NCBI GenBank assembly: GCA_000091165.1
Contig: FP565575.1
Location: forward strand, 1,410,001-1,442,000
From: Candidatus Methylomirabilis oxygeniifera
Lineage (GTDB): Bacteria > Methylomirabilota > Methylomirabilia > Methylomirabilales > Methylomirabilaceae
Length of the DNA stretch: 32,000 bases
Direction: 5' to 3'
The notes below the pieces were generated by a model. That model saw only the letters and a list, made by a program, of their open reading frames with translations, was not told the DNA's origin and ran no database searches. The position numbers and the translations under genes were made by a program. How positions within the stretch are numbered: position 1 is the first letter of the stretch; every line of letters starts with the position of its first letter. Below are positions 3,938 through 31,743 of this stretch, one piece after another.

Positions 3938-4046
3938 CTCTGTGTTCTAGCCGAGCTACGGAGCGAAGTCAACGAAAAACCGGTATCCCCATGTGTGTCT
4001 CAGGTTGTCGACCATGCCATACACCCCGCAAAAATGACGTCGCGCA

Positions 4047-4075
4047 TTGTCTTGCCTCTTCAGATGTGCTATATA
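4047..4075 (+). promoter_or_regulatory. candidate sigma70 promoter upstream of the first peroxidase gene
   Basis: TTGTCT (4047-4052), 17 nt spacer, TATATA (4070-4075) preceded by TGc (extended -10 like). It lies in the divergent ctaA/peroxidase intergenic region. Confidence 0.3.
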
Positions 4076-4176
4076 GAACCGCCGTAACAACCAAACAGAA
4101 CGATGAGAGGGCGAACCTGATCAGGCCTGAATTGCTGCGATTGCTGCAGCACACTAAGAAGACCGGGAGGGACAAC

Positions 4177-12888: not shown

Positions 12889-13614
12889 CTACTGCTTCGT
12901 CAGTTCGACGTTCAGCTTTGTCTCCTGCTTTGCCTTGACGACGACGTCCTGGACCTTCTTGCCCAGCGTCTCCTGCCAGACCTCGAGTTTATAGCTGCCC
13001 GGCGGAACATCGCTCAGAGTAAACTCGCCTTTGTCGTTGGTGACCGCCACATACGGATGGTCGGACACAACGACCCAGCCGAGCATCCAGCTATGAGCAT
13101 CGCAGGTCACCTTGACAATCTCCGGTTTCGCAAATTTTTCAGTCAACACCTTCTTGAATTTCGGCTGAGCCTTGTTGATCGACGAGTTCGCCTTGCTGTA
13201 GGTATGAATATTATGGAGAATCCCGTCATTGTTCAGGATCTCCAGTTCGCCGGCGGCGGGCATGACCACGACATGCGGCTCGTAGACGCACCCGTTTTGA
13301 TCCAGCGTGGCTTTCGTGATCGTCCACTTCTTCCCAGTTTTCATATCCAGCAGACTCACCACGGCATTTTCAATCCCTTTGTTCGGACCCACTATGAGAT
13401 CATAGCTCAGGTGCTGTTTTTTCCCGCACACTTCTTTGTCCTTCGTCACCTGGAGCTCTTTCCGCGCCGGTGCAGTCCCGGCAAACTTGATGGTACCGGT
13501 GATGGTCCCGCCGTCTTTGATCTCGCCGCCCTCGTAAGCTGAAACCTGAGCGGCAGTCCCAATGAACAAGCTCGCCACCACAGTCGCTGCAAGCATTCCG
13601 CGTATCCTGTACAT
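12889..13614 (-). CDS. secreted cupredoxin-like protein with carboxypeptidase-regulatory-like domain, paralogue 2 (last gene of the bc-type operon)
   Basis: AAGGAGG lies 9 nt upstream. Signal peptide (…AQVSA/YE). It carries ILHNIHTY and CDAHSWM (C-x2-H-x2-M) and the C-terminus KGEFTLSDVPPGSYKLEVWQE. It is 241 aa, collinear with ORF 5417..6142. Confidence 0.7.
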   Translation of the reverse strand: MYRIRGMLAATVVASLFIGTAAQVSAYEGGEIKDGGTITGTIKFAGTAPARKELQVTKDKEVCGKKQHLSYDLIVGPNKGIENAVVSLLDMKTGKKWTITKATLDQNGCVYEPHVVVMPAAGELEILNNDGILHNIHTYSKANSSINKAQPKFKKVLTEKFAKPEIVKVTCDAHSWMLGWVVVSDHPYVAVTNDKGEFTLSDVPPGSYKLEVWQETLGKKVQDVVVKAKQETKLNVELTKQ

Positions 13615-16333: not shown

Positions 16334-16354
16334 CGGGCATCCTCGATTATGGCG

Positions 16355-17179
16355 TTAGATATTGAACCAGGGTGTGACCCAGACATTCTTGATGTTAAAT
16401 GCCAGACGCAAGAACATCTTGATCGGAAGACTCATCATCGTCAAAAAGAGGAAGGCCACGATCCCGTATCGGACAGCTCCCAACAGACGGATCGTGTCGC
16501 TCGTATCCCGCTTTGCGAAGTAATAGACGATCGCTGTGCTGAAGTAGAGCGCAATCAACACCAGCCCTATCAACTCAACCCCGAAGATCTTGGGATTGCC
16601 CATCCACCGAAACGGGCCCCATGCCGGCAAATCGACGTTGGTCAGTGCAATCACCATATGGGGATCCCAGGTCTCCCACGGCCAGAAGAGGTTCCAGCCT
16701 GGGCCCCTGAAGAATACGCCCGTAATGATCAGTGAAATCCAGAGGAAAAAAAAGCCGAACAAAAACGTAAGAATGGCGAAGGGACGCTCCCGAAAGGTGT
16801 AATAACCGTTTCCCTTAGGATTGACATCGACGTATGGGATGATCATGAGCCCGACAATGATCAGGCTGGGCAGGACGACACCGGCAAACCAGGGATCGAA
16901 GTAGACCAGCATCTCCTGAAGTCCCAGAAAATACCACGGCGCCTTGCTCGGATTGGGGGTTCGTGTGGGGTTGGCCGCCTCTTCCAAAGGCGCATCGATC
17001 AGAATCGCCCAGACGGTCAGGATCACCATGACGATAATCGAACAGATAAACTCGTTGCGGACCAAGTAGGGCCAGACGTGGACCCTATCGGCAACCACAG
17101 GGTCTTTCGCGCCGGCCGGTTGCGCAGCCGGTTTCGGCGTTGTGTCCTCTTTTACGTCAGCCATCGCACCACTCGTCAC
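16355..17179 (-). CDS. cytochrome b C-terminal half / b6f subunit IV-like protein
   Basis: Polytopic membrane protein carrying the Qo-site PEWY-type motif as APWYFLGLQEML. It lies directly downstream of the b6-like gene. The track start is GTG 17179; ATG 17164 is an alternative. Confidence 0.8.
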   Translation of the reverse strand: MTSGAMADVKEDTTPKPAAQPAGAKDPVVADRVHVWPYLVRNEFICSIIVMVILTVWAILIDAPLEEAANPTRTPNPSKAPWYFLGLQEMLVYFDPWFAGVVLPSLIIVGLMIIPYVDVNPKGNGYYTFRERPFAILTFLFGFFFLWISLIITGVFFRGPGWNLFWPWETWDPHMVIALTNVDLPAWGPFRWMGNPKIFGVELIGLVLIALYFSTAIVYYFAKRDTSDTIRLLGAVRYGIVAFLFLTMMSLPIKMFLRLAFNIKNVWVTPWFNI

Positions 17180-17237
17180 ACGTTATGAATCATCAGGTAC
17201 CGTGCTTCACGTATCACCGAACACTTATCACTTAACA

Positions 17238-18008
17238 CTACAACGGCCCTGAGATCCCCCCGTCTTTTCTGATTCTCCAGAAATGGACGATCATCAGGAG
17301 GCTGATCAGGATCGGCAGAAAGATACAGTGCAACACGTAAAATCTGAGAAGTGCGGAGGGTCCTACAAGCGTACCGCCCAGCAGGAACGCCCTGGCGTCA
17401 TACCGCGACGTAACCCCGACGACCTCACCGAACGGGCCCTCACTCCCGACAAACGGCGTCGCTCTGGCCATATTGGTTCCGACCGTCACGGCCCAGATCG
17501 ACAACTGGTCCCAGGGCAACAGGTAGCCGGTAAAACTCAGCAGCAGCGTGATCGTCAGCAGGATGACTCCGACGACCCAGTTGAACTCTCTCGGCGGTTT
17601 GTACGAACCGGTCATGAATACGCGAAACATATGCAGCCAAACGGTAATCACCATGCCGTGAGCCGCCCACCGATGCATATTGCGCATGATCATCCCGAAC
17701 GGGACGTCGTGTTCCAGGTATTTCATGTCGGCATAGGCGTACTCGGCCACCGGACGATAATAAAACATCAGAATCACACCGGTTACGACCGTAACCAGAA
17801 ACATCAGAAAGGTGATGCCGCCCATGCACCAGGTGAAGCGGACCTTGATGGCATGGCGTCGGATCTTGGGCGGGTGCAGGTGGAGAAAAACATTCGCCAT
17901 GATCTGCAGTACCCGGTTGCGCGGAGTATCCGAGTACTCGTGGCGAAAGATCGAGCGCCAGAGTTGCGACTCGACGATCCGTTTCTTCAGCTCGTTCAGA
18001 TCGAACAT
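17238..18008 (-). CDS. cytochrome b6-like (N-terminal half of cytochrome b)
   Basis: The first His pair [16 protein letters not shown] has 13 residues between ligands. The second, [17 protein letters not shown], has 14, which is the b6-type spacing. The C-terminus [15 protein letters not shown] closely resembles b6 (HF..IRK.GISGPL). Confidence 0.9.
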
Positions 18009-18049
18009 TCAGAATCGCACCCTTTCCATCCGGACCGAGAACTTCCAGG

Positions 18050-18643
18050 CTAGACCTTCAACTTGAGAAACGCCTCTGGCTTCGTCCAGTCGCCCCGTTC
18101 GAAGCGGAACAGCACGCTCTTGTCGACCACGAGCTGTCCATCATCACCCAGCGTAATCTTGACCCGTTCCAGCGGTCGGGGAGCCGGACCCTCAAAGTTG
18201 ATGCCGTCTCTGTGGAAACCGCTCCCATGGCAGGGGCATTTAAACTTGTTCTCCGCATTCAGCCAGTTCGGGGTACAGCCGAGATGCGTGCAGACCGCCA
18301 GAAGCGCATAAAACCCGTCAGCCTCATGAACGATCCAGACGCCCGCCTCCTGTTTCCACCGCTCACTGACGGTGCCGACCGGGTACTCCTCCGGCAGGCC
18401 GGCCTTGAACACTGCTGACGGCTCAAAGAGTACTCTCGGAAACATAAAGCGCCCGAACGCCACGCCGCCGATACCCAGCCCGGCCGCGATCCCGCACCAT
18501 CCCGCGAGACAAAACACATCGCGCCGCGACCAGAGGGTCGCATTGCTTCCCTCCGGCGTCGCGATGAGGCGATCTTCTCTATTCTCTCCGGTAGGGCTCT
18601 GCTCGTCCACTGCCCCCTCAGCCGTGACGACTGACGTCGTCAC
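18050..18643 (-). CDS. Rieske [2Fe-2S] subunit
   Basis: CTHLGC and CPCHGS cluster-binding boxes, and a Tat-like SRRDVFCLAGW followed by a TM anchor. The track start is GTG 18643. GTG 18610 (GAGGGGG 3 nt upstream) is an alternative. Confidence 0.88.
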   Translation of the reverse strand: MTTSVVTAEGAVDEQSPTGENREDRLIATPEGSNATLWSRRDVFCLAGWCGIAAGLGIGGVAFGRFMFPRVLFEPSAVFKAGLPEEYPVGTVSERWKQEAGVWIVHEADGFYALLAVCTHLGCTPNWLNAENKFKCPCHGSGFHRDGINFEGPAPRPLERVKITLGDDGQLVVDKSVLFRFERGDWTKPEAFLKLKV

Positions 18644-19298: not shown

Positions 19299-20150
19299 TT
19301 ATGCCGCCTGGGGGAGTTGATAGAACTGTTCACGCCAGACCCGAGGGGTGAGATACCCCAGGGCCGAATGCTGTCGCTCGCTGTTGTAGCGGTCGATCCA
19401 GGCCATGATGATGGATTCGGCCTCCGCGAAGGACTCGAAATGGTGCAACCAGACACATTCTTGCTTCAGGGTGCGGAAGAAGCGTTCAATGACCCCGTTG
19501 TACTCCGGGGAGTATCGAGGGATAAACTCCTGGGTAATCGCAAGCTGCTGGGTGGTCCCAACGAACAGGCGGGCCAGGAAGATGGAACCGTTATCGTGCC
19601 GAAGCCGCAGGCCCTCGGGTACGTGGGCGAAACTTCCATAGCACTGGAGAATGCCTTGCTCCAGGGCATCGACCGCTTCGATCGCCCGACCCTGGCGGGC
19701 AAACCGAGCGCCGACGCACTCGCGGCTGCCAGCGTCGAGGACGCCGATAAGACTCGCCCAGCCATCCCGACCACACCAGATCTTCGTCGCATCGGTGGCC
19801 CAGAGCCGGTCCGGCTGCTGGACCGTCGAACACTTCTCCCACGTCGGCGTGGGCCGCAGGGCTGGACGGTGCCACACGCGGCATTGCCACCCTTTCCGTT
19901 GCATGATCCGATGGACCGTCTTGCGATTCACCCTGACGCCCTCCTGGAACCGCAGCCAGGCCCACACCCGCCGGTAGCCGAAGGTCTCCTCGCGGTCCAG
20001 GATGTTCCGGATCCGCTGGGCCAGGCGCTCGTCACACGGCGCCTGCTGCGGGGAAGTGGGCGCCGAGCCGCGCTGCCATTTGTAGAAGCCCGCGCGCGAG
20101 ACACCCAGTGTCCGGCACGCCAGACTCAGCGGCGCACCCTGCGCCCTCAA
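19299..20150 (-). CDS. IS3-family transposase OrfB (DDE/rve integrase core), expressed as an OrfAB fusion by -1 frameshift
   Basis: Typical IS3 OrfB: GYRRVWAWL, WATDATKI (first D), IGVLDAGSRE, HDNGSIF (second D), YSPEYNGVIERFFRTLKQE (E), YNSERQHSALGYLTP. The frame is open upstream to the slippery run at 20191-20198, so the functional product starts in orfA. Confidence 0.9.
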   Translation of the reverse strand: MRAQGAPLSLACRTLGVSRAGFYKWQRGSAPTSPQQAPCDERLAQRIRNILDREETFGYRRVWAWLRFQEGVRVNRKTVHRIMQRKGWQCRVWHRPALRPTPTWEKCSTVQQPDRLWATDATKIWCGRDGWASLIGVLDAGSRECVGARFARQGRAIEAVDALEQGILQCYGSFAHVPEGLRLRHDNGSIFLARLFVGTTQQLAITQEFIPRYSPEYNGVIERFFRTLKQECVWLHHFESFAEAESIIMAWIDRYNSERQHSALGYLTPRVWREQFYQLPQAA

Positions 20151-20467
20151 CTGGTCGACCTCCGCCCACGTTGGCGGATCAGCGCGTCGGTTTTTTTTAA
20201 CAGCTCCTTCTCCAGGGTGAGCTGGCCCACCTTGCGCTCCAGCTCCCGCACGCGGCGCTCCCGCTCAGAGTCGATCTGTCCCCGGCGCGTCTTGAGCGCC
20301 GCCTGCCCGCCTTCCAGGAACCGATCCCGCCAGGCAAACAGTTGGGCTTGGCTGAGCCCATACCTGCGGGCCAGCTCCGCGGCCTCACCACCACGCAATA
20401 GTTCCAGCACCACAGCCGTCTTGCGGGTGATCGTCCAGCGATTCTGTGTCAGGGTCGACTCGGCCAT
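20147..20467 (-). CDS. IS3-family transposase OrfA (HTH)
   Basis: ATG 20467 with AAGGAGG 6 nt upstream. The track start GTG 20503 is less likely. It has an HTH plus leucine-zipper-like [25 protein letters not shown], and the slippery TTA AAA AAA ACC lies near its 3' end. Confidence 0.85.
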
Positions 20468-20531
20468 TCGACACCTCCTTGTTGAGTCGCCCCAGTTTGT
20501 CACAAGCGCTGTCTACTTCTCAAGGGGGTCA

Positions 20532-20715
20532 GTATAAGCGGGCCACGTGCCACACCTTTCGCCATTCCTTTGCCACGCACTTGCTTGAAGGCGGCTACGA
20601 TATTCGAACTGTCCAGGAACTTCTAGGCCATAGCGACGTGAAGACAACGATGATGTACACCCATGTCCTCAACCGTGGTCCGGCAGGCGTTCGCAGTCCG
20701 GTTGACGGGCTATGA
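20532..20715 (+). pseudogene. intI: integron integrase, C-terminal fragment
   Basis: [59 protein letters not shown] contains tyrosine-recombinase box II (HxxR...Y) and the IntI-typical NRG..GV.SP.D tail. Roughly 200 central residues of a normal IntI, including the IntI-specific insertion, are missing between the two fragments. Confidence 0.8.
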
Positions 20716-20890: not shown

Positions 20891-21774
20891 TTAGCCGTAC
20901 AAGAGACATAACCCATGGAAAGTTTGCTTGTTCGTATAGCCAAGGAAAGATTCACACACCCAACTAGCCAAATTGTTCATTTTGTAGAAGACAACGATGA
21001 TGCAAACGACATATTAAATAATCTCGACCAGTATCCCCACGCATATGTTCTTGCTTGTCTGATGGATCGGCAGATTAAGGCAGAACGGGCTTGGGTAATT
21101 CCCTATTTAATCTACAAAGAATTGAATTCGTTTCTCCTGGACGACCTTGCAAAGATTGGGCTACCTGAACTAAAGCGCATTTTTAACGCCAACAAGCTCC
21201 ATAGGTTCAACGACACTATGGCGTCAGTTTTTCATGATGCTGTGTTGAAGATTAAAAACGAATACGAAGGAAATGCCGCAATTATTTGGAGCAATAATCC
21301 AAGCAGCTCAGCAGTTGTTTATAGATTCTTGGGATTTAAAGGGAGCGGCATAAAGATATCCACGATGGCAGCTAATATCCTTGCAAGACAATTCAGAATT
21401 CCATTCTCAGATTACTACTCAATTGATATATCGCCAGATGTTCACATCATTAGGGTAATGAAACGAATGGGCTTTGTGCCATCTGATGCGAATAACGACA
21501 TGGTTATATATAAAGCGCGTGAACTAAATCCAGGGTTCCCGGGAATCATTGACTTTTCATGCTGGGAGATTGGCAGAAAGTGGTGCCGCCCAAGAACGCC
21601 AAATTGTGTTGACTGCATTGTTACGTCAGAGTGCAACAAAGTAACATCTGTGCAAGACAGCCAATAGATCACAGTTAACAAGAAGCCATGAATTCAAGAC
21701 AAGCATTACGTACGGCTAACCCCCGGTTCCAGGCGACGTCGGCGCTAACGCGCCGCCGCGCCTGAACCGAAACG
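20891..21774 (+). mobile_element. integron gene cassette (884 bp) with its own attC
   Basis: The cassette begins TTAGCC, immediately after G20890 of GTTAGCC. It ends at G21774 of the R' core GTTATGG. The cassette-initial GTTAGCCGTAC (20890-20900) is the exact reverse complement of GTACGGCTAAC (21710-21720), which contains the R'' core. This is the geometry expected of a circularisable cassette. The body is visibly AT-rich compared with its flanks. Confidence 0.65.
20915..21667 (+). CDS. HhH-GPD / endonuclease III-like DNA glycosylase family protein with [4Fe-4S] loop
   Basis: Helix-hairpin-helix segment FLGFKGSGIKISTMAANILAR. SPDVHIIRVMKRMGF parallels VDTH.FRV.NRLG of Nth. The C-terminal CRPRTPNCVDCIVTSEC is the C-x6-C-x2-C-x5-C EndoIII cluster motif. 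Codon usage is low-GC. Confidence 0.75.
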   Translation: MESLLVRIAKERFTHPTSQIVHFVEDNDDANDILNNLDQYPHAYVLACLMDRQIKAERAWVIPYLIYKELNSFLLDDLAKIGLPELKRIFNANKLHRFNDTMASVFHDAVLKIKNEYEGNAAIIWSNNPSSSAVVYRFLGFKGSGIKISTMAANILARQFRIPFSDYYSIDISPDVHIIRVMKRMGFVPSDANNDMVIYKARELNPGFPGIIDFSCWEIGRKWCRPRTPNCVDCIVTSECNKVTSVQDSQ

Positions 21775-21780
21775 TTATGG
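21714..21780 (+). repeat. attC recombination site (67 bp)
   Basis: R'' GGCTAAC (21714-21720), spacer CCCC, L'' GGTTCCAGGCG (21725-21735, with one extrahelical C). The central region contains GGCGC-TAAC-GCGCC. L' CGCCTGAACC (21759-21768), spacer GAAAC, R' GTTATGG (21774-21780). The architecture parallels known attC sites such as attC-aadA7. Confidence 0.6.
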
Positions 21781-22014
21781 GTTGATGCGGTGAGGCGGCT
21801 TGGCCGGACGGCGGCTATAATATAAGGCGTTGGGTGCTTTACCCGCTCCAGGAATATCACAACCTGACGCATGATGAGATCGCCCCCTTGGTCTTGGGAA
21901 TTCCGGAAACACCGTACTCGAATTACGGAGGCACCGTACTAATTCCGCCGGCAGCCCCATCTCCCTCCTGACTACCGGCGCTGAAGGCAAGAACAACACA
22001 AGACCAGGCCGCCA

Positions 22015-23038: not shown

Positions 23039-24415
23039 ATGCCACAACGACGTGTCGTGAATGCCGTCATTCTGCTGGTTCTCGCCGCCGCACTACTGTT
23101 CACCTGGACCACGTCCTTCGCCCAAGAGGTCTTTCCGGACCAACCTGCCGCAGAAGAGACCTCGGCACCCGCCCCGCCGGCGCCGCCTAAGATCGACTCC
23201 GGGGATACGGCCTGGATGCTCACCTCTTCGGCATTGGTGCTGTTGATGACCGCGCCCGGTCTCGCGCTGTTTTATGCCGGCCTGGTCCGTCGTAAGAATG
23301 CGCTGGGGACGATCATGCAGAGCTTCATCACCCTGGCCTTGATCAGCGTGCAGTGGGCCCTATTTGGCTACTCCCTGGCCTTCGGCCCCGATACGGGCGG
23401 TATCATCGGGAGTCTCGACTGGGTCGGACTTCGCGGCGTAGGACTGGATCCTAATCCCGACTATGCAGCGACTATCCCGCACCAAGCCTTTATGATTTAT
23501 CAGATGATGTTTGCGGCCATCACCCCGGCCCTCATCACAGGCGCGATAGCCGAACGGATGAAGTTCAGCGCGTTTCTGCTCTTTACCATATTGTGGGCAA
23601 CATTGATATATGATCCGCTTGCACACTGGGTCTGGGGGGTGGGCGGGTGGCTGCACAAGATGGGCGCGCTCGACTTTGCCGGCGGTACTGCCGTCCACAT
23701 CAGCTCCGGCGTGTCGGCCCTGGCGGCAGCCCTGGTTGTGGGGCGACGGCGCGGCCATCCCGGAGAGCCGATGCCACCCCATAATCTGACCATGACCGTC
23801 ACCGGCGCGGCCCTCCTTTGGTTCGGCTGGTTCGGCTTTAACGCGGGGAGCGCCGCGGCCGCCAACCGGTTGGCTACCAACGCCTTTGTCGTCACTCACC
23901 TTGCGACAGCGGCGGCCGCGCTCTCATGGATGTTCGTCGAGTGGGGCTCCCGAGGCAAACCAACCGTCCTCGGGGCGGCCAGCGGCGCCGTCGCGGGACT
24001 CGTTGCCATTACCCCGGCATCCGGCTACGTCGGCCCGATGTCGGCCATCGTTATCGGCGCCGGTGGGGGGATCCTCTGCTACTCGGCCTGTATGCTTAAG
24101 GCGCGGCTGGGCTATGATGATTCACTGGACGTTGTGGGGGTTCATGGCGTCGGCGGCACGTGGGGCGCGCTGGCCACCGGCCTGTTTGCTTCTAAAGCGG
24201 TCAACCCGGATGCGGCCGACGGGCTGTTCTTTGGCAATCCTCATCAGTTCGTGGTGCAGGTGATCGCAACGCTGGCCTGCATGCTTCTGGCGTTCGTGGG
24301 TACGGTCATTCTGCTGAAGCTTGTCGACGCGCTGGTCGGCCTTCGGGTCAGCAGTGAAGAGGAACAGATGGGCTTGGATCTGAGCCAGCACGAAGAGAAC
24401 GCCTACGGCTTCTAA
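23039..24415 (+). CDS. amtB: ammonium transporter (Amt family)
   Basis: AGGAG lies 5 nt upstream. It has a signal peptide plus a Pro/Ala-rich linker, then [54 protein letters not shown] and [13 protein letters not shown], the hallmark Amt blocks. Confidence 0.93.
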
Positions 24416-24617
24416 AGACGGGGTGGAGGGTGTGGGGTGTGAAGGGAAGTTATGCCTTGCCTGGCCCTGCACCCTCCCACACTCTGCTTTTGACATAACG
24501 AGTACGACGACACATAAAGATAGAAGGCTGATGGTGCGTGCAGCGACCGGAAATCTGATCTTACACCACCGCCTCCACTATCTCCCTTGTTAAACTCGCC
24601 GCATTTTTGTTCCGGTG

Positions 24618-24646
24618 TTGACTACCACACACTTCATATCTATATT
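24618..24646 (+). promoter_or_regulatory. sigma70 promoter upstream of the universal stress protein gene
   Basis: TTGACT (24618-24623), 17 nt spacer, TATATT (24641-24646). This implies a leader of about 118 nt containing the hairpin CTCCC-TCAA-GGGAG and a GC-rich hairpin just before the SD. Confidence 0.5.
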
Positions 24647-24770
24647 AAATTGGCCTTGAGAGATCGTGTTGAAACTCCCTCAAGGGAGGAGTCCGGATGC
24701 GCAAACGCTTGCCGAAGCAATGTTAACCTGTATCTTGCCCGCCGCTGGCGGGCGGCAAAGGGAGGTCCCG

Positions 24771-25277
24771 ATGATTACACTCAAGAAGGTGCTGGTGCCG
24801 ACGGATTTCAGCGAGGCCTCGAAGGTGGCGATCAAGTATGCGCGGAACTTTGCCTCCACGTACCACGCCGCAGTGCATGTCGTGCACGTATTACCGGATG
24901 CCTCGGTCACGCCGTGGGCGTTCGGGGTCGAACCTGAGGTCATGGGACTGTCGAGCGCGGAGCGGGAAAAGCGGTGGAAGGAGCGGGCCGCAGAACAGAT
25001 GAAGCAATTGTTCTCGGAGGCGGAGCGAAAGGATCTTGAACTGCACCTGACAACGCTGGTGGGTCATCCGGTCCAGCAGATTCTACAATACGCCACCGAG
25101 CAGGAGGTTGATCTCATTGTGATGGGGACGCACGGCCGAAGCACTGAAGGGCCTAACATCGGGCAGAATTTTCCATGGGAACCCCCGATAGGAAGTGTCG
25201 CCGAGCGAGTGGTTCGCGGAGCCCCGTGTCCGGTCCTCTCCGTTCGTCATCCGGAGCATGAGTTCGTAACGCCTTAA
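24771..25277 (+). CDS. universal stress protein (UspA family)
   Basis: Start at ATG 24771 (GGGAGG 5 nt upstream), inside track ORF 24666..25277. MITLKKVLVPTDFSEASKVAIKYA... and DLIVMGTHGRS...GSVAERVVRGAPCPVLSV are canonical Usp motifs. Confidence 0.88.
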   Translation: MITLKKVLVPTDFSEASKVAIKYARNFASTYHAAVHVVHVLPDASVTPWAFGVEPEVMGLSSAEREKRWKERAAEQMKQLFSEAERKDLELHLTTLVGHPVQQILQYATEQEVDLIVMGTHGRSTEGPNIGQNFPWEPPIGSVAERVVRGAPCPVLSVRHPEHEFVTP

Positions 25278-25349: not shown

Positions 25350-25400
25350 AAACGCGACGCGGATCGCACCTTGCGGCGACCCGCGTCGCGTTTTGTGATT
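25350..25400. terminator. bidirectional rho-independent terminator between usp and the hemerythrin operon
   Basis: AAACGCGACGCGG (25350-25362) pairs with CCGCGTCGCGTTT (25381-25393): a 13-bp perfect stem with an 18-nt loop. T-rich on the + side (TTTTGTGATTTTT) and A-rich on the other side. It lies between convergent stops at 25277 and 25468. Confidence 0.65.
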
Positions 25401-25467: not shown

Positions 25468-26382
25468 TTACATACATGAATGGCCGCCCGGCTTCAGCTC
25501 CTCCAGCAATGCCATCATGGAGTTGTGGACGTCGGCGCCGATCTTTTCGTTCTCGAAGCGCTCAAACGCCTCTCCCAGGCGCGCCTGGTCATCCGGACTC
25601 AACATATTGTCCGCCATCGCATACAGGATCATATTCTCTTTATCGATGTGGGGTCGCAGCATCTGAATATAGGCACGCCCGTTTCGGACGATCTTCTGCG
25701 TCGCAGTCGGATCGGTTCCGATGACCGCAGCGGCATCGGCCATCTCACGGACGTATGCGCGCCCGGCCTCATGGTCCGACAGCATGACCGCGATCGGTCC
25801 GCCCTGCAATGGAAAGCCGCGGTTCACCATCGTCTTGAACAGCAGGTCCTCCTCCTTGCCGTGATGACACTGATCGGCGAAGGTCCGGATGAACTTGACC
25901 GCCTTCTCGAAATAGGTCCGGTCCGGAGCAGCCCCGGCCTCAAGCGCGATCAGCTTTCGCTCCAGCCCGTCCAACGCCTGAAGGATCAGGGTATGTTCGT
26001 CCTTGAGGATTTGGGTCGGCGAACCGGTGTGGGCATGCTCGTGTCCGTGGTGTTCGTGATGTTCATGGTGCGCATGGTGCGCGTCGTGCATGTGGTGCCC
26101 GCCGCAGCCCATCCCCTCAGCCGGCGCATGCTGGCCTGCGGCAGCGGCAACCCGGCGGATCGCCACCTGCCACACCTCGGGACCGGCCTCCAGATAGCGC
26201 CATTCGAACTCCCCCGCCCGTTCCGCAGCGAATGTGTAGTAGAGCGGCTTGGGGTCATGATCGTTGACCAGGAGCATCGTGTCCCCGACCGCCAACTCGT
26301 CAAACGCTCGGAAGATAGTCGGGTGCTTCTGCGGAACCGGCAGGACACGGGCATCCACGGTTGCTGCGTAATTCGCTGGCAT
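25468..26382 (-). CDS. DUF2249 - His-rich linker - hemerythrin-like (HHE cation-binding) fusion protein
   Basis: AAGGAGG lies 8 nt upstream. The N-terminus VLPVPQKHPTIFRAFDEL.VGDTMLLVNDHDPKPLYY....GEFEWRYLEAGPEVWQVAIRR fits the DUF2249 pattern. The linker is GCGGHHMHDAHHAHHEHHEHHGHEHAH. The C-half with ILKDEH...CHHGKEED.LF...MLSDHE...HIDKEN is a hemerythrin-like four-helix His/Glu pattern. Confidence 0.8.
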   Translation of the reverse strand: MPANYAATVDARVLPVPQKHPTIFRAFDELAVGDTMLLVNDHDPKPLYYTFAAERAGEFEWRYLEAGPEVWQVAIRRVAAAAGQHAPAEGMGCGGHHMHDAHHAHHEHHEHHGHEHAHTGSPTQILKDEHTLILQALDGLERKLIALEAGAAPDRTYFEKAVKFIRTFADQCHHGKEEDLLFKTMVNRGFPLQGGPIAVMLSDHEAGRAYVREMADAAAVIGTDPTATQKIVRNGRAYIQMLRPHIDKENMILYAMADNMLSPDDQARLGEAFERFENEKIGADVHNSMMALLEELKPGGHSCM

Positions 26383-26421
26383 AGAAACTTCCTCCTTCGA
26401 CAGATACAGGGTTGTTGGTTG

Positions 26422-27498
26422 TTAGCGGATGATCATCTGAGGCATCGCCTCGGCGGCCGCCTCGGTCGCCAAGCGCACCTTGTCCGCGACATCGCGGAAG
26501 ATCTGCGCCTCAGCGGACTCCGGCATCGCCACGACAACAGGAGCGCCGGTATCCCCGCCCTCGCGGATAGTCGGGTTCAGGGGGATCTCCCCCAGGAAAG
26601 GAACTCCAAGCGAGTCACTCACCTGTCGTCCACCGCCCCGGCTGAAGATGTCGGTTTCTCCCTGACAGTGGGGACAGATAAAATAGCTCATGTTTTCCAC
26701 GATCCCCAGGATCGGGACGCGCGCCTCACGAAACATCCGCAGGCCTCGCTCTGCGTCCATCAAGGCCACAGCGGAAGGGGTCGTCACGATCACCCCGCCG
26801 GTCAACGGCACCGCCTGAACGAGAGTCAACTGCGTATCCCCCGTCCCCGGTGGAAGATCGACGATCAGGTAGTCCAGTTCGCCCCAGTGCACCTCATGCA
26901 GGAGTTGCTTCAGGGCCTGGGCTACCAGGGGACCGCGCCAGATGATCGGCGACTGCTCACCCAGCAGATATCCCACCGATATCACCCTCAGGCCGTGCCG
27001 CACCAGCGGGACAATCTTGCCTTCATGCGCCTTGGGACGGCCAAGCTCGCCCAGCATCCGGGGCACATTCGGCCCGTAAATGTCGGCGTCCAGAAGACCG
27101 ACCGCAGCCCCGGACTGCGCCAGGGCCAGGGCCAGATTAACGGATACAGTACTCTTGCCCACACCGCCTTTACCGGACGCAACGGCGACGATGCGCCGCA
27201 CCCCTGGAAGCGGAGCGGGTCCGGGAGCGGACTCCTGAGGCGCGGGGCGCGGGGCGTTCTGAATCCGAATCTCACCGATCCCCGGTACGCGACTCAGCGC
27301 CTCACGGACCGACGCCTCTACCTTGGCGACTACCTCCGCGTCCTCCGTCGGAACCTGGAGATCAAGATGGACGGTGGCGCCCTCTACCCGCGCATTCTTT
27401 ATCATGCCAAACGAGACGAGATCGCGGCTCATTCCAGGGTACTTGACCTGGCGAAGCGCCGAGATCACCATATCTTCCGTTAACTGTGGCGTTACCAT
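26422..27498 (-). CDS. apbC: Mrp/ApbC/NBP35-family Fe-S cluster carrier ATPase with N-terminal DUF59-like domain
   Basis: Deviant Walker A VASGKGGVGKST, DADIYGPN, DYLIVDLPPGTGD and the cluster-ligating CPHC motif (FICPHCQGE). The start overlaps the upstream DUF59 gene by 7 nt. Confidence 0.9.
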   Translation of the reverse strand: MVTPQLTEDMVISALRQVKYPGMSRDLVSFGMIKNARVEGATVHLDLQVPTEDAEVVAKVEASVREALSRVPGIGEIRIQNAPRPAPQESAPGPAPLPGVRRIVAVASGKGGVGKSTVSVNLALALAQSGAAVGLLDADIYGPNVPRMLGELGRPKAHEGKIVPLVRHGLRVISVGYLLGEQSPIIWRGPLVAQALKQLLHEVHWGELDYLIVDLPPGTGDTQLTLVQAVPLTGGVIVTTPSAVALMDAERGLRMFREARVPILGIVENMSYFICPHCQGETDIFSRGGGRQVSDSLGVPFLGEIPLNPTIREGGDTGAPVVVAMPESAEAQIFRDVADKVRLATEAAAEAMPQMIIR

Positions 27499-27836
27499 GC
27501 GGGTCCCCCCCGTCCCATGCCGGACAGGGCTTGCTTGCCCTCAGGCGAGATCATGTCCGGATTCCACGCAGGTTCCCATACGATCTCGACGGTGACGCCG
27601 GTGACGCCGTGTATCTCTCGAACGGCGCGATCAACCGCCTGGACGAAGCTGGCGTGCATAGGGCAGCCGCGCGTGGTGAGGGTCATGCGGATACCGATCT
27701 GTCCGCCTTCGATCTGCACGTCGTAGACGAGGCCCAGATCGACGATATTCACCCCCAACTCCGGATCAATGAGCTTCCGGAGCGTGTTATAGATCTGCTC
27801 TTCAGTTATTGACGATGTTTCCGGTTCCGCCATCAT
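27492..27836 (-). CDS. DUF59 (SufT/MIP18-like) metal-sulfur cluster assembly factor
   Basis: ITEEQIYNTLRKLIDPELGVNIVDLGLVYDV......I.MTLTTRGCPM is the canonical DUF59 signature. There are two adjacent ATGs (27836, 27833). GGAGG spacing favours 27833. Confidence 0.85.
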   Translation of the reverse strand: MMAEPETSSITEEQIYNTLRKLIDPELGVNIVDLGLVYDVQIEGGQIGIRMTLTTRGCPMHASFVQAVDRAVREIHGVTGVTVEIVWEPAWNPDMISPEGKQALSGMGRGGPAW

Positions 27837-27899
27837 GCCTCCTAATTCAAAAATGTCTATCGAGTCTGTTGCGTCTATTGCGTCCGGAACCCGCGGGCC

Positions 27900-29228
27900 T
27901 TAGGCTCCTGCAGTCTGCGCCTCGGGAAGAGGCGTCAGCCGGGGAACCAGGTGACGGTAGATCCGGCAGACGGCGACGGCGAACGTAAGACCCGCCAGGG
28001 CCAACACGAGGGTCCCCACCTGGAGGAGCAGCCCGGACGCGAAGATTACTCCGGCCACGGTCATCGCAATGCCCGCATGGAGCAGCCAGTACTCTATTCG
28101 AGGCATTGACTCGCCAAGGAGCTGGGTGGCGGCCGGAACCGGCCGAAGCCCTACGAGGTCGCTGTAACGGTGGTGCCAGACCAGGAATGGGATAATCTTG
28201 TACATCATACCGATAATCGTGACGGAAATCCAGCCCAGAAGCGCCAGGACCCCATAGCCGAAGGCCAGCCGGGCGGCAAACTCATCGCTCGAGACCCAAC
28301 CGGTGCTCAGCCATAGCCCCAGGATCGTCAGCAATATCAGCATGACCATGGCGCTGACGGAATGCTGCAGCCCCCAGTCCAGTCGCGGGCGTCGGCGCGT
28401 CCGCAGGACATCACGCATCGTCCGGAGAAACAGGCCCACCGCTGCGGCGATCAGGAGGGCGAACAACGCAGCCCACGAACTGTGCAGCAGCAGCATCACG
28501 TACAGACCCGCGAGACCGGCCTGGAGCAGCCAGAACTCCCAGTAGGCCGGCCGCTCATTGCGAAGCTCACTCAGGCTGAACATGGGGATCAGCTTGTAGC
28601 TCGCCCCGAAGATCATCATGGTGACCCAGCCGATACCGGCCAGGTGGGCGTGCGCGTGGATCGTGCGCAGGATCTGACCTCCCAGAAAGTCGAACATCTT
28701 GTCGAGCGCCATGAGATTCCCCATGACTACCGTGGAGGCCAGGTAGACCAGCGCCGCCGCCACGTGTCGCCCGATAATGTCCCAGCGGGGGAGCTGCCAC
28801 AGCGTGCGCCCCATATTAATCAGGAAGAGTGTGATGGCAATCAGCACCAGACCTGCGCCGATCGCAACGCCATGGTGATGCCCGATCCAGAAATGGCTCA
28901 CCATCAGCGTGACGCCGAGCACCATGATCCAGTACTGCCAGCCGGCCAGACGCTCGCTCCACAGCGTGGTCTCCAGGGCAACCGGCACCAATTGGAATGA
29001 CGCCCCCATGACCGTCATCGTGATCCACCCAAGCGTCAGCAGGTGGGTGAGAGCGAGGCCGTTTCCCTGATAGTAGAAGTCCAGCAAATTGTCGACCTGC
29101 CACGGCGCCCACAGCAGGGCGGCGACAAACGCGGCCTGCGCCGTGACAAAATAGCGCAACGGCACCCAGAGGGATGGCTGTCTGGCCGGGGCGGCGCTAC
29201 TTCCAGATGCGGGTTTCGAACCAACCAT
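27900..29228 (-). CDS. 12-TM His-rich integral membrane protein of unknown function (distantly haem-copper-oxidase-subunit-I-like?)
   Basis: About 12 predicted TM helices with conserved His clusters (THLL, GHHHG, HAHAHL, WHHR). A motif GW[IV][TS]xx[IV]xG[AM]x[FY][QK][LI][IV]P recurs every 132-133 residues. The start is uncertain: TTG 29270 in the track, ATG 29228 chosen, GTG 29165 possible. Confidence 0.7.
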   Translation of the reverse strand: MVGSKPASGSSAAPARQPSLWVPLRYFVTAQAAFVAALLWAPWQVDNLLDFYYQGNGLALTHLLTLGWITMTVMGASFQLVPVALETTLWSERLAGWQYWIMVLGVTLMVSHFWIGHHHGVAIGAGLVLIAITLFLINMGRTLWQLPRWDIIGRHVAAALVYLASTVVMGNLMALDKMFDFLGGQILRTIHAHAHLAGIGWVTMMIFGASYKLIPMFSLSELRNERPAYWEFWLLQAGLAGLYVMLLLHSSWAALFALLIAAAVGLFLRTMRDVLRTRRRPRLDWGLQHSVSAMVMLILLTILGLWLSTGWVSSDEFAARLAFGYGVLALLGWISVTIIGMMYKIIPFLVWHHRYSDLVGLRPVPAATQLLGESMPRIEYWLLHAGIAMTVAGVIFASGLLLQVGTLVLALAGLTFAVAVCRIYRHLVPRLTPLPEAQTAGA

Positions 29229-29763
29229 GCGTCGTCTCTTCGGTGGAAAAGCTGAAGCCCCGCTCCTCAAGTTTCGGATAGAGCAGCATCGGCCGCCGAT
29301 CGGTCATGGCCAGGATATGTCCGCCTGCCGCGATCCGGGGAAGATTCTCCAAGATCTTCGCCATCGGCTGCGGCGGCTCCAGTCCGCGCGCGTCCACGAC
29401 AATGGCGTCCCCGACGGGCTCCGTCGGCCTCGATGCGGCGGCAGGCGCCGGAGCGGCCGCGGCCTGTGCGTCGGCCCGATAGAAGGTGATACACCAGTCT
29501 TCGGGACCGCGCTTCTGTGTCCAGTGCGTAAAGCCGCGCTGCGCCATCACGCCATACAGCGGGATCGGCTCAAAGATATTGTAGAGGACAAATACCTGAT
29601 CGTCTTTGAGCGACATAACGGACTGCATGATCCGCTGAAACGGCTCCTGTCCCGCCCGCACCTGGTCGCGAACATCCAGGACTACCCGGCGATCATCGGA
29701 CACATTCCGAAGCGCCTCAGGGATCGACGCGCCCTCGCCGTGACAACTACTCTCGTTCATCAT
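29197..29763 (-). CDS. tandem DUF2249-domain protein
   Basis: GGAGG lies 8 nt upstream. There are two DUF2249/TusA-like repeats: VLDVRDQVRAGQEPFQRIM....LYNIFEPIPLYGVMAQRGF and VVDARGLEPPQPMAKILENL......RRPMLLYPKLEERGF. They are separated by an Ala/Pro linker. Confidence 0.7.
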   Translation of the reverse strand: MMNESSCHGEGASIPEALRNVSDDRRVVLDVRDQVRAGQEPFQRIMQSVMSLKDDQVFVLYNIFEPIPLYGVMAQRGFTHWTQKRGPEDWCITFYRADAQAAAAPAPAAASRPTEPVGDAIVVDARGLEPPQPMAKILENLPRIAAGGHILAMTDRRPMLLYPKLEERGFSFSTEETTHGWFETRIWK

Positions 29764-29836
29764 AGGGATTACCTCCTTTTTCTCAGGTTACTGACTCAGC
29801 GTCGAGTGTAGTGTAGAGCGAAAGATTGAGGACGTC

Positions 29837-29852
29837 TGTGACTTTAGTCTCA
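29837..29852. promoter_or_regulatory. CRP-type palindromic operator TGTGA-N6-TCTCA upstream of the DUF2249 operon
   Basis: TGTGACTTTAGTCTCA matches 9 of 10 half-site positions of TGTGA-N6-TCACA. It is centred about 81 nt upstream of ATG 29763, in the 116-nt gap after the Crp-family gene. Confidence 0.5.
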
Positions 29853-29879
29853 CGGATGACAAGAAGGGCAAAGGTACGA

Positions 29880-30545
29880 TCAGAGCAGGCGGATCAGGGC
29901 AGCCCGGCTCACAATCACAACCCCATGGCGATCAAACGTGATGGCGCCTTCCTTTTCCAGGGCCTTAAAGGCGCGGCCGATCATCTCGCGGGCCGTTCCC
30001 ACAACGGACGCCATCTCCTGTTGCGTGGACTGCTGCTTCAGGCGCAGACCGCCTTGGCCGTCATCTTCGGCCATCTCCAGGAGGTACTTCGCCACACGGC
30101 TGGTCACGCTGCGAAACGACAGGTCCTCGACCTTACGGGTAAAGTAGCGGAGCTTTCCCGTAAACGCCTTGAGAAAGCCGATCGCAATGGCAGGATGCTC
30201 TTCGACCAGGCGCCGCATCGCATCTCGCCGGATACCCCACAGCGCCGCCGGCTCCGCAGCCTGAGCGTTGGCAGGGTTCGGCCCGCCGTCGAAGATCGGG
30301 ACCTCATTGAAACAATCGCCGGCCTCCGCAACCCGAAGGACCTGCTCACGCCCGTCAGGGGACAGCTTAAAGATCTTGACCTTGCCGGATCGAACCACGT
30401 ACATCGCCTCGGCCGGCTCCCCTTCTGTAAACAGGAGTTCTCCCTTCTGCAACTGCACCTCAAAGACGTTGGCCCGGATACCCTCCAACGCTCGCGCATC
30501 GAGGTCCTGGAAATACGGAATCGCCTTCAACTGCTCTGACAGCAT
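29880..30545 (-). CDS. Crp/Fnr-family transcriptional regulator (no Fnr-type Cys cluster)
   Basis: cNMP-binding-like beta-roll (LFTEGEPAEAMYVVRSGKVKIFKLSPDGREQVL) and a C-terminal HTH TQQEMASVVGTAREMIGRAFKAL with a CRP-like R-E-x3-R recognition helix. ATG 30545 is preferred to the track's TTG 30581. Confidence 0.88.
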   Translation of the reverse strand: MLSEQLKAIPYFQDLDARALEGIRANVFEVQLQKGELLFTEGEPAEAMYVVRSGKVKIFKLSPDGREQVLRVAEAGDCFNEVPIFDGGPNPANAQAAEPAALWGIRRDAMRRLVEEHPAIAIGFLKAFTGKLRYFTRKVEDLSFRSVTSRVAKYLLEMAEDDGQGGLRLKQQSTQQEMASVVGTAREMIGRAFKALEKEGAITFDRHGVVIVSRAALIRLL

Positions 30546-30729
30546 GGCCACCCCTGGATGACACAACGAGGGATATCCCAACCACCCGGTATCATTGTAG
30601 AAGGACGAACAGCGCAGGTCAATCGTTCTCCCGATTTGACCTGGAGAGGGTTTTCCGGTAGTTTCGATCCCAACAAAACCATAAGGGAAAAGGGTGGCGG
30701 TCTAAGGAAAAGAACCGAACCTCTCGAAC

Positions 30730-31119: not shown

Positions 31120-31404
31120 ATGATCGTCAGCTATCGGGACAAGCGCAGCAGAGACTTCGCGGCCGGCAAACGAGTCAAACCCTTCACCGGCTTCGAGCGC
31201 GCGGCGCGCCTGAAGCTCGACCGTCTCGATGTGGCCCTGTCGCTTCAAGACCTTGCCGCTCTGCCCGGTAACCATTTTGAGGCGCTGATGGGCGACCGTC
31301 GAGGCCAATATAGCATCCGCATCAACGACCAATGGCGAATATGCTTCGAATGGCCAGAACGCTCGCCGGGTCCCGTGAACGTAGAAATTGTGGACTACCA
31401 CTAG
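31120..31404 (+). CDS. higB: HigB-like toxin (killer protein family), second copy
   Basis: 94 aa, with LPGNHFEALMGDRRGQYSIRINDQWRICFEW.......VEIVDYH as the canonical HigB signature. It is preceded by TTGACG (31086-31091) and the inverted repeat ACGTAACG / CGCTACGT (31090-31097 / 31106-31113), a possible promoter and operator. Confidence 0.88.
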   Translation: MIVSYRDKRSRDFAAGKRVKPFTGFERAARLKLDRLDVALSLQDLAALPGNHFEALMGDRRGQYSIRINDQWRICFEWPERSPGPVNVEIVDYH

Positions 31405-31416
31405 GAGGCTTTGAAC

Positions 31417-31743
31417 ATGCCGCGCATCCCCATCCATCCCGGTGAGCATCTCGCCGAAGAACTGACAGCGCTCAACATGAGCGCCGCCGAGCTTGCGCGC
31501 CACCTCAGCGTCCCGACCAACCGCATCACCGAGATACTCAACAGCCAGCGCGCTATCACGGGGGACACTGCCCTGCGTCTCGCACATTTCTTTGGGACCA
31601 GCGCGCAGTTTTGGCTGAACCTTCAGGGTCTCTACGAGTTGCGTCTCGCCGAGCAGAAGGTCGGAAAACAGATCAAGGCTCTTCCGACTCTCAAGCACCG
31701 CAAGACCAGGATCGGACCGCTCCACCAACCTGCCCATCTCTGA
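31417..31743 (+). CDS. higA: HigA-family antitoxin (XRE-type HTH), second copy
   Basis: MPRIPIHPGEHLAEEL.ALNMSAAELARHLSVPTNRITEILNSQRAITGDTALRLAHFFGTSAQFWLNLQ is canonical HigA. AGGAGG (31403-31408) lies 8 nt before ATG 31417. The track start at 31411 is TTG, only 2 nt after the SD. Confidence 0.88.
   Translation: MPRIPIHPGEHLAEELTALNMSAAELARHLSVPTNRITEILNSQRAITGDTALRLAHFFGTSAQFWLNLQGLYELRLAEQKVGKQIKALPTLKHRKTRIGPLHQPAHL

Follow-up and report, generated by a model that had tools for sequence, protein, structure and literature searches.

A predicted regulator-controlled operon of Candidatus Methylomirabilis oxygeniifera centered on a divergent heme-copper oxidase homolog with a possible role in nitric oxide physiology

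A stretch of 32,000 nucleotides (nt) from the genome of Candidatus Methylomirabilis oxygeniifera (M. oxyfera; contig FP565575.1, positions 1,410,001 to 1,442,000), here called the window, carries on its minus strand, between positions 25468 and 30545, the gene for a Crp/Fnr-family regulator (crp) followed by five closely spaced genes, the second of which encodes a protein with 12 transmembrane (TM) helices. The 12-TM protein is a divergent homolog of the heme-copper oxidase (HCO) superfamily, and the locus belongs to a computationally recognized, experimentally uncharacterized protein family. Our favored interpretation, to which we assign a probability of about 0.45, is that the genes specify a membrane complex linked to nitric oxide (NO) that protects, repairs, or matures iron centers; that NO-related physiology is involved in some form is the broader and likely statement. 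A sequence-only reading made earlier without database searches had described the locus as a Crp-controlled six-gene operon for the assembly or repair of metal centers. The open reading frame (ORF) list and profile searches recovered all six ORFs, whose products are CBE68743 to CBE68748, at the coordinates and with the domains which that reading had given, and reproduced its gene order and all five of its spacing figures, i.e., from crp to the last gene a 116-nt gap, a 32-nt overlap, a 63-nt gap, a 7-nt overlap, and a 39-nt gap.

The 12-TM protein (442 residues; 27900 to 29228, minus strand) had been left without a family in the sequence-only reading, but it matches the Pfam model COX1 with 55.1 bits, above the gathering cutoff of 34.8. 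This similarity consists of two stretches, residues 57 to 116 and 190 to 246, which both align to the TM10 region of the oxidase model. In profile comparisons, which included matches to the cbb3 oxidase subunit CcoN, the strongest similarity was to TM9 to TM12 of the oxidases. An AlphaFold2 model, built on a 28-sequence alignment, shows 12 helices with a predicted local distance difference test score (pLDDT) of 88 and a predicted TM-score (pTM) of 0.88. When this model was compared with the PDB using Foldseek, the best 50 matches were all subunit I chains of HCOs or NO reductases; the TM-scores to subunit I of cbb3, aa3, bo3, and ba3 oxidases and of NO reductases ranged from 0.6 to 0.73 at 11 to 16% sequence identity. 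At the level of the fold, the protein thus has the 12-TM subunit I architecture of the superfamily, with three pseudo-symmetric four-helix units. The COX1 match and the HCO fold led to the rejection of a transporter identity, which the sequence-only reading had named as an outcome that would count against its proposal. The designation "His-rich" used for this protein, which contains 15 His residues (3.4%), is much more appropriate for the product of the last gene with its 24 (7.9%).

A genuine cbb3 oxidase or NO reductase was rejected as well, since the ligands do not fit, the equivalog scores are too low, and partner subunits are absent. Specifically, the canonical set of six His residues (one each in TM2 and TM6, a pair in TM7, and the HxH motif of TM10) is missing from the alignment of the 12-TM family, in which no conserved His occurs on TM7, the position of the CuB pair, or on TM10, the position of two heme ligands. 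With a score of 39.3 bits for the ccoN equivalog TIGR00780 (cutoff, 583), the protein falls outside CcoN, and neither ccoO nor ccoP is present among the operon neighbors (DUF2249, DUF59, Mrp, and hemerythrin genes). Because the six-His set is missing, this protein is wrongly and misleadingly labeled "cbb3 oxidase subunit I" in the databases.

The HCO-like family comprises 966 clusters at 50% identity with E values of 1e-30 or below. Of the profile models suggested by the sequence-only reading, those for DUF2249, hemerythrin, DUF59, Mrp, and COX1 all found their counterpart in the operon, but NnrS did not: Pfam NnrS (PF05940) gave no match to the 12-TM protein at E ≤ 0.01. Precomputed PF05940 matches are present on some homologs with 43 to 47% identity. 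With its 12 TM helices, its similarity to TM9 to TM12, two conserved His residues, and an NO/denitrification context, the protein falls into the three-unit HCOH proteins as these have reportedly been defined. Two family members are unusually long: P0192 (862 residues) has two profile-match stretches and no Pfam match at E ≤ 0.001, and P0301 (704 residues) carries a C-terminal DUF3108 domain.

Two His residues are invariant in the family. H62 in TM2 (29043 to 29045) and H193 in TM6 (28650 to 28652) are found in 132/132 diverse representatives and also in 24/24 loci of a distant proteobacterial subfamily with 22 to 29% identity. H195 in TM6 (28644 to 28646) is present in 96 and Y325 in TM10 (28254 to 28256) in 95 of the 132 representatives; in the distant subfamily, H195 is replaced, mostly by Ser or Val, and Tyr occurs at position 325 in only 2/24 loci, the remainder having mostly Leu or an alignment gap. 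A further His, H112 in TM3 (28893 to 28895), is restricted to 22/132 representatives and occurs in none of the 24 distant loci. H195 and Y325 tend to occur together (both in 92, neither in 33, and discordant in 7 of the 132 representatives), with a Fisher p value of 3e-23 that is inflated by shared ancestry.

The conserved His residues could be mapped in register onto the canonical ligands for just two of six positions. As the CcoN profile alignments of the 12-TM protein came out shifted by 4 or 8 helices, the single global alignment was replaced by a register counted within each four-helix unit from its conserved Pro (P82, P215, and P347), the rotation not being fixed by the sequence alone. 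Of the ligands of CcoN (H60, H207, H257/H258, H345, and H347 in the published numbering), H207 and H347 are located at −20 and H60 and H345 at −22 from the position equivalent to this Pro. The corresponding values in the 12-TM protein are −20 for H62 in TM2, −22 for H193 and −20 for H195 in TM6, and −22 for Y325 in TM10. In oxidases of known structure, a His at −22 points into the pore belonging to its own helix arc, and one at −20 points into the next pore, the one that its helix closes. Applied to the 12-TM protein, this geometry suggests that H62 and H193 probably ligate one bis-His heme in pore A, and that H195 and Y325 probably form a second, His/Tyr-ligated site in pore B in this subfamily. 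Pore A is free of cofactors in canonical oxidases, which use pores C and B. The pairing predicted from the register is identical to the one seen in the conservation statistics. CuB would be absent from the 12-TM protein, and the canonical binuclear center would have been lost. Among residues outside the membrane, the most conserved ones are located on cytoplasmic loops (S91/E92/R93, N138/T142, R278/D284, and W351/Y355/P365), a distribution that fits the docking of cytoplasmic partners.

The gene upstream, with a GGAGG ribosome-binding site at 29772 to 29776, encodes a protein of 188 residues with tandem DUF2249 domains (29197 to 29763, minus strand). With the fusion protein encoded by the last gene, the operon has three DUF2249 (PF10006) domains, the model scoring 110.9 bits over two stretches in the tandem protein and 98.3 bits in the fusion protein. 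Both domains of the tandem protein, for which a weak TusA match was also obtained, are highly conserved across phyla, and the second contains the TusA-like motif D-A-R-G-L-E-P-P-x-P without the Cys of TusA. A PDB sequence search with this protein gave nothing meaningful. Its architecture is 2×DUF2249 only; the DrpB-type combination of DUF1858 and 2×DUF2249 is found complete in the orthologs of two loci, a hot-spring locus with 61% identity (L032) and a locus with 55% identity (L040).

Downstream of the 12-TM gene lies the gene for a DUF59 (FeS_assembly_P) protein of 114 residues (27492 to 27836, minus strand), which matches PF01883 with 73.4 bits and has the Cys motif TTRGCP at residue 54. Its scores for the SufT and SUF_assoc equivalogs remain below the cutoffs (97.7 versus 143.4 bits for SUF_assoc). 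Apart from the orphans, all loci have a DUF59 gene after the HCO-like gene, and four independent representatives are natural fusions of the two proteins, with DUF59 at the cytoplasmic C terminus. Because of these fusions, DUF59 appears to behave as a subunit of the membrane protein and not as a generic Fe-S assembly factor, a point on which the sequence-only reading needs correction.

The next gene (26422 to 27498, minus strand) encodes a P-loop Fe-S carrier ATPase of 358 residues that belongs to the Mrp/ApbC/NBP35 type (PF10609, 340.2 bits). It possesses an N-terminal DUF59 domain, the deviant Walker A motif GKGGVGKS at residue 109, and CPHC at residue 275; the NCBIfam model ApbC scores 344.4 bits, marginally below its cutoff of 348. 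The last gene (25468 to 26382, minus strand; 304 residues) codes for the fusion protein, which matches PF10006 with 98.3 bits, as given above, and PF01814 with 66.1 bits. It is composed of a DrpA-like DUF2249 domain (residues 8 to 77; 26152 to 26361), a Cys/His-rich linker (residues 93 to 118; 26029 to 26106), and a hemerythrin HHE domain (residues 122 to 257; 25612 to 26019). The DUF2249 domain, marked by conserved K-H and N-D-H-D-P motifs, represents a type of its own, of which single-domain versions exist in other phyla. In the linker, the G-C-(C/G)-G-H start and the His-rich run are kept at variable length, and the His/Glu motifs of the hemerythrin domain comprise H130, H173/H174, E177/E178, H204, H245, and E248. 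The RIC/YtfE equivalog NF008221 remains at 20.1 bits (cutoff, 254), and no ScdA_N domain was found, so that the fusion protein is not a member of this group.

Conservation of the locus was analyzed in relatives collected in two steps: a genome scan with a single protein returned close NC10 relatives and a very distant subfamily, and the middle range was added via contigs encoding homologs. The gene string is syntenic across phyla, in line with the view that it is a conserved functional unit. The NC10 loci have retained the whole string, apart from Mrp, which is absent from two metagenome-assembled genomes (L004 and L006). In L032, the order is Crp – ferredoxin – [DUF1858 + 2×DUF2249] – HCO-like – DUF59 – Mrp – DUF2249-hemerythrin. 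L040 begins with ferredoxin – ScdA_N – [DUF1858 + 2×DUF2249] – HCO-like – DUF59 – Mrp and continues with cupin – DUF2249 – CopD-like – Mo-oxidoreductase – hemerythrin – NnrS. A locus with 41% identity (L042) has the order Crp – single-unit COX1-like gene – ScdA_N – 2×DUF2249 – HCO-like – DUF59; its COX1-matching gene (4668 to 5105 of that locus) encodes 145 residues and represents a single four-helix oxidase-like unit. Verrucomicrobia-type relatives (37 to 40% identity) show the order 2×DUF2249 – HCO-like – DUF59 with overlapping genes, with or without a single DUF2249 gene, and one such locus adjoins genes for YgbA_NO, a NirK-like copper/cytochrome c protein, SCO1, and Crp. A small 2×[4Fe-4S] ferredoxin gene is located between the Crp box and the DUF1858 + 2×DUF2249 gene in L004 to L006, L032, and L040.

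The distant subfamily (25 loci; 22 to 29% identity), which includes Gamma- and Betaproteobacteria, Campylobacterota, and Leptospirales, has hemerythrin as a neighbor in 18, cytochrome c′ in 8, and Crp in 3 of its 25 loci, and DUF2249 near the HCO-like gene in 12/25 by Pfam and 17/25 by tblastn. The trio of hemerythrin, DUF2249, and HCO-like protein therefore persists even here. In L007 to L031, a uniform ORF of 146 residues precedes a DUF2249 gene of approximately 90 codons and the HCO-like gene (e.g., 5259 to 5699 in L007 and 1473 to 1913 in L009); its size and position fit the hemerythrin matches of the neighbor census. In L014, from Pollutimonas harenae JCM 16917, the order is DUF2249 – HCO-like – Crp. 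In other clades, hemerythrin is encoded by a separate gene or is missing. Based on the synteny across loci and on the HCO-like::DUF59 fusions, we conclude that the predicted core is a membrane-protein complex with DUF59 and DUF2249 proteins, encoded in the order tandem-DUF2249 – HCO-like – DUF59, that hemerythrin is an ancient associate, and that Mrp, Crp, ferredoxin, cupin, and ScdA_N/DUF1858 are accessories. The proposal that the genes form a functional unit is supported, with Mrp and hemerythrin regarded as accessory to the core.

The regulator encoded by the first gene (221 residues; 29880 to 30545, minus strand) is a member of the Crp/Fnr family, with matches to PF00027 (cNMP_binding, 92.7 bits) and PF13545 (HTH_Crp_2, 58.6 bits). 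Its closest solved relatives are GlxR and Mycobacterium tuberculosis Crp (125 bits), while Dnr (3dkw) reaches 89 bits. An alignment to E. coli CRP showed that the CRP-type recognition helix R-E-x-x-x-R is kept, whereas the residues binding the phosphate of cyclic AMP (cAMP), R82 and S83 in E. coli numbering, are replaced by Asn and Pro; the cAMP-CRP equivalog NF008732 reaches 87.7 bits, short of its cutoff of 266. The only Cys is residue 78, and the Fnr Cys cluster for a [4Fe-4S] center is lacking, as had been recognized from the sequence. With Arg82/Ser83 replaced and a single Cys present, the regulator is neither a cAMP-Crp nor an Fnr. Regulators of the Dnr/NnrR type respond to NO in a heme-dependent manner, have an E-x-x-S-R recognition helix, and bind a TTGAT-N4-ATCAA box. 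In M. oxyfera, the helix of the regulator is R-E-x-x-x-R, the box is the CRP-like TGAGA-N6-TCACA, and the Dnr score is below that for GlxR/Crp.

The box itself is the palindrome TGTGACTTTAGTCTCA at 29837 to 29852, in the gap between crp and the tandem-DUF2249 gene; it reads TGAGACTAAAGTCACA on the operon strand and TGTGA-N6-TCTCA on the plus strand, exactly as the sequence-only reading had noted. A single palindrome match in 32 kb is not significant by itself, since 1.7 are expected at up to one mismatch, and the case for the box consequently rests on its conservation across species: it is kept as yGAGAC-N4-GTCrCA in 6/6 NC10 loci (L001 to L006) and in L032, while the flanks diverge. In sister lineages, the ferredoxin gene intervenes downstream of the conserved box. 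A TAnnCT hexamer, identified by eye, follows the box at a fixed distance of 21 to 22 nt in all NC10 loci and L032; in M. oxyfera the distance is 21 nt, and the hexamer is the candidate −10 element TACACT at 29810 to 29815 (minus strand). With the transcription start site predicted from this element, the center of the box would be near −41.5, a candidate class II activator geometry. For crp, a sigma-70-like promoter of its own, TTGACC-17-TACAAT, was assigned at 30594 to 30622 (minus strand) by consensus match alone (10/12). Given this separate promoter and the position of the box behind crp, a regulator gene plus a five-gene operon is the predicted arrangement; the gene set proposed earlier is thus retained, but its extent as a six-gene operon is not.

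For the 12-TM gene, the start at ATG 29228 that had been suggested is supported by the N-terminal motif M-x-x-S-x-P-x-S, which is kept in relatives with 37 to 40% identity, and by the overlap of approximately 29 to 35 nt between DUF2249 and HCO-like genes, which recurs in other phyla. At the other end of the operon, the strong bidirectional intrinsic terminator postulated by the sequence-only reading was located at 25350 to 25393; it has an 18-bp stem flanked by an A-run and a T-run, a minimum free energy of −40.3 kcal/mol, and a z score of −4.43. The terminator is common to the operon and the convergent gene for a universal stress protein (Usp; 24666 to 25277, plus strand), which together with an ammonium transporter (Amt) gene converges on the operon (23039 to 25277, plus strand).

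Taken together, the following model is proposed. The Crp/Fnr-family regulator would activate the five-gene operon from the class II promoter in response to an effector other than cAMP, possibly NO, O2, or the redox state. The 12-TM HCO-like protein, which may be of the same broad kind as NnrS, would form the center of a membrane complex, with both cofactor sites, in pores A and B, predicted to lie in the periplasmic half of the membrane. The tandem-DUF2249 protein, putatively DrpB-like and of TusA fold, and the DUF59 protein would be fixed subunits on the conserved cytoplasmic face, and translational coupling of the DUF2249, HCO-like, and DUF59 genes is likely. Two additions would be characteristic of NC10: the Mrp/ApbC Fe-S carrier ATPase, which may dock through its own N-terminal DUF59 domain, and a DrpA-like DUF2249 domain joined by a His-rich, presumably metal-binding linker to a RIC-like hemerythrin domain with a putative di-iron site. 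The unit would thus pair an NnrS-like part in the membrane with cytoplasmic parts of the RIC-like and Fe-S-carrier types, and it may work in an NO-rich, denitrification-type physiology, keeping iron centers (Fe-S, di-iron, heme) functional by shielding, repair, or maturation. The link to NO, also suggested by the sequence-only reading, gains support from the neighbors at other loci, which repeatedly include nitrite/NO genes (NirK-like, YgbA_NO, cytochrome c′, NnrS, and ScdA_N). M. oxyfera itself oxidizes methane with nitrite, and NO is an obligatory intermediate of this process.

In the DUF2249 family, for which the sequence-only reading knew of no established function, DrpA and DrpB of Thermus thermophilus have been studied genetically (PMC6282519). 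Expression of drpAB depends on the Crp-family regulator DnrT, and after deletion of drpAB, nar and dnr are expressed irrespective of nitrate. In the double mutant, the amount of nitrate reductase protein is that of the wild type, yet the enzyme shows little activity. DrpB, consisting of DUF1858 and 2×DUF2249, is membrane-associated despite lacking a TM helix. The four DUF2249 genes of Haloferax mediterranei are all induced by 3.2 to 8.7 log2 units under denitrification, and the nar operon contains an Mrp-DUF2249 fusion that is among the induced genes (PMC11218638). Both sets of results count in favor of the NO link.

These data also bear on an unlikely alternative, namely that the HCO-like heme protein and hemerythrin detect NO, nitrate, or O2 and that DUF2249 relays the signal to Crp. 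The uncoupling of nar and dnr from nitrate in the drpAB mutants, the proposed action of DrpA/DrpB on DnrS/DnrT, and the association of DrpB with the membrane (PMC6282519) all suit a sensory role, as do the position of crp next to the module in NC10, L032, L042, L014, L021, and L031 and the reported combination of DUF2249 with response-regulator domains. Hemerythrin domains are, moreover, common sensor modules in general. Yet a pure sensor would not be expected to include Fe-S carrier parts, whereas DUF59 is always present and sometimes fused and Mrp is often found; many loci have no adjacent regulator; and the loss of nitrate reductase activity at a normal protein level in the Thermus double mutant points to maturation (PMC6282519). 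Another alternative, derived from the main proposal of the sequence-only reading, is that the sole task of DUF59, Mrp, DUF2249, and hemerythrin is to construct or mend the cofactors within the 12-TM protein. Tight translational coupling and the fusion of DUF59 to the membrane protein would be explained in this way, and dedicated maturases of the Mrp type, such as Ind1 and HCF101, are known for other complexes. However, the membrane protein has a single, non-conserved Cys (residue 421), and because it lacks any conserved Cys it offers no evident Fe-S site on which Mrp and DUF59 could act, which weakens this explanation; in addition, stoichiometric fusion of an assembly factor to its client is rare, and Mrp and hemerythrin are dispensable in many lineages. 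We therefore rate it as improbable.

A catalytic enzyme, in which the HCO-like protein turns over NO or O2 and hemerythrin, DUF59, Mrp, and, in sister taxa, ferredoxin supply electrons or iron, is judged a little less probable still. The HCO fold, the four conserved ligand-type residues, the alignment of H112 to the CuB ligand H257 of CcoN in the NC10-like clade, the ferredoxin gene within the operon in L004 to L006, L032, and L040, and the occurrence of NirK and cytochrome c′ among the neighbors are compatible with catalysis, and YtfE-type di-iron proteins have reportedly been found to reduce NO. The lack of a TM7 His pair and of a TM10 His, however, leaves no CuB/FeB binuclear center, and H112 is confined to 22 of the 132 representatives. 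Moreover, no gene for a subunit II or a cytochrome c partner accompanies the 12-TM gene, the ccoN score of 39 bits is far from the cutoff of 583, and the universal set of only two His residues suits a simple bis-His heme. Equally doubtful is a more far-reaching version, according to which the 12-TM protein founds a functionally new HCO branch that has a bis-His heme in pore A and a His/Tyr heme in pore B, is wired to the DUF59/DUF2249/di-iron-hemerythrin/Fe-S module, and acts catalytically or in iron trafficking on NO or NO-damaged iron. If this were true, the protein would be part of the handling of NO and internally produced O2 in M. oxyfera.

The favored interpretation, an NO-linked complex caring for iron centers, also has to accommodate several unfavorable points. 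Heme binding and the H62/H193 and H195/Y325 pairings are deduced from the sequence register, and the co-occurrence of the latter two residues in part reflects common descent. The similarity of the hemerythrin domain to YtfE is marginal (E ~0.01). Two HCO-like paralogs are orphans with no partners nearby, several HCO-like members have no NO-related neighbor at all, and the ferredoxin gene and DUF1858 domain kept in sister lineages have been lost in M. oxyfera and its closest relatives. The authors of the Thermus study interpreted DrpA/DrpB as nitrate sensors, not as repair factors (PMC6282519), and the literature searched contained no mention of the locus-tag range DAMO_167x to DAMO_169x, a range that was guessed. 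Searches combining Methylomirabilis with hemerythrin led to the bacteriohemerythrin of an aerobic methanotroph and not to the present locus, and those combining DUF59, hemerythrin, and nitric oxide led only to a general Fe-S review.

The remainder of the window contains several further gene groups. Immediately upstream of the crp region, a HigB-like toxin/helix-turn-helix (HTH) antitoxin pair is encoded at 31120 to 31743 (plus strand). A cytochrome bc-type gene set occupies 13685 to 18643 on the minus strand and includes genes for a Rieske protein (18050 to 18643), the N-terminal part (17238 to 18008) and the C-terminal part (16355 to 17179) of cytochrome b, and a multi-heme cytochrome c of 882 residues with four Cytochrom_C stretches (13685 to 16333). 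Two genes for di-heme cytochrome c peroxidase/MauG-type proteins (3655 to 5211 and 8904 to 9929, plus strand) flank three genes for a metallophosphoesterase, a SoxA/TsdA-like cytochrome c (7456 to 7920), and a SoxY-SoxZ fusion (7945 to 8826), the last of which also matches Desulfoferrodoxin. Near the cytochrome genes, two paralogous ORFs of 241 codons (5417 to 6142, plus strand, and 12889 to 13614, minus strand) have a C-terminal CarboxypepD_reg domain. The segment from 21001 to 22000 has a G+C content of 0.47, compared with approximately 0.58 elsewhere, and the ORFs at 19317 to 20537 and 20915 to 21667 have no Pfam match. No Rfam family or tRNA was detected anywhere in the window.

Mislabeling as "cbb3-type cytochrome c oxidase subunit I" is routine in the family and distorts the picture of oxygen respiration that is reconstructed from genomic and metagenomic data. 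Family members and their fixed partners are neighbors of nitrite/NO genes in settings that range from archaea-linked DUF2249 systems to the NC10 bacteria, Verrucomicrobia, and Proteobacteria. A dedicated system that allows M. oxyfera to survive or exploit NO, its obligatory intermediate, would bear on nitrite-driven methane oxidation. The unit had been considered functionally undescribed, and this holds true in the literature searched; the link between DUF2249 and HCO homologs, however, had already been made computationally by Pei et al. 2014, as cited in PMC11218638. The present analysis adds predictions on residue-cofactor assignment, on DUF59 as a subunit of the membrane protein, and on a defined Crp box and promoter geometry.

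Among known systems, the closest counterparts are the HCOH families. The 2014 work of Pei and colleagues reportedly describes single-unit and three-unit "HCOH" (HCO-homology) families including NnrS; the majority of the three-unit proteins are reported to carry two conserved His residues and to be predicted to act in denitrification or in detoxifying NO. The three-unit families (Pei, Li, Kinch & Grishin 2014, Protein Sci 23:1220) share with the 12-TM protein the 12 TM helices in three four-helix units, the similarity to TM9 to TM12, two universally conserved His residues, and the association with DUF2249 and denitrification/NO genes (PMC11218638). NnrS is itself an HCOH family, but the window protein differs in having no Pfam NnrS match. 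CcoN provides the best sequence and structure matches, and the HxH motif of the 12-TM protein aligns to its H345/H347; however, this motif is located on TM10 in CcoN and on TM6 in the 12-TM protein, which has neither the TM7 His pair nor a TM10 His.

DrpA and DrpB of Thermus resemble the M. oxyfera unit in that DUF2249 proteins are expressed under the control of a Crp-family regulator (DnrT). The drpAB genes are bicistronic and lie directly downstream of nar, and HCO-like, DUF59, or Mrp partners are not mentioned in the accessible part of PMC6282519. The architecture of DrpB is that of the gene product upstream of the HCO-like protein in L032 and L040, while the tandem protein of M. oxyfera is devoid of DUF1858; DrpA, a single-domain DUF2249 protein with conserved His residues, is similar to the domain of the M. 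oxyfera fusion protein, where it is joined to hemerythrin. RIC/YtfE/ScdA proteins have in common with the fusion protein a hemerythrin-type domain with His/Glu motifs and a weak YtfE match, and their ScdA_N or DUF1858 half occurs as separate genes or domains in sister loci; in M. oxyfera, by contrast, the N terminus is DUF2249 instead of ScdA_N, a His-rich linker is present, and the gene resides in the operon of a membrane protein. Finally, the Mrp/ApbC/NBP35 and DUF59 (SufT/PaaD/CIA2-type) systems share the Walker A and C-x-x-C motifs, the N-terminal DUF59 domain of Mrp, and T-x-x-G-C-P with the proteins studied here, whereas in the present system DUF59 is a fixed and sometimes fused partner of a putative heme membrane protein.

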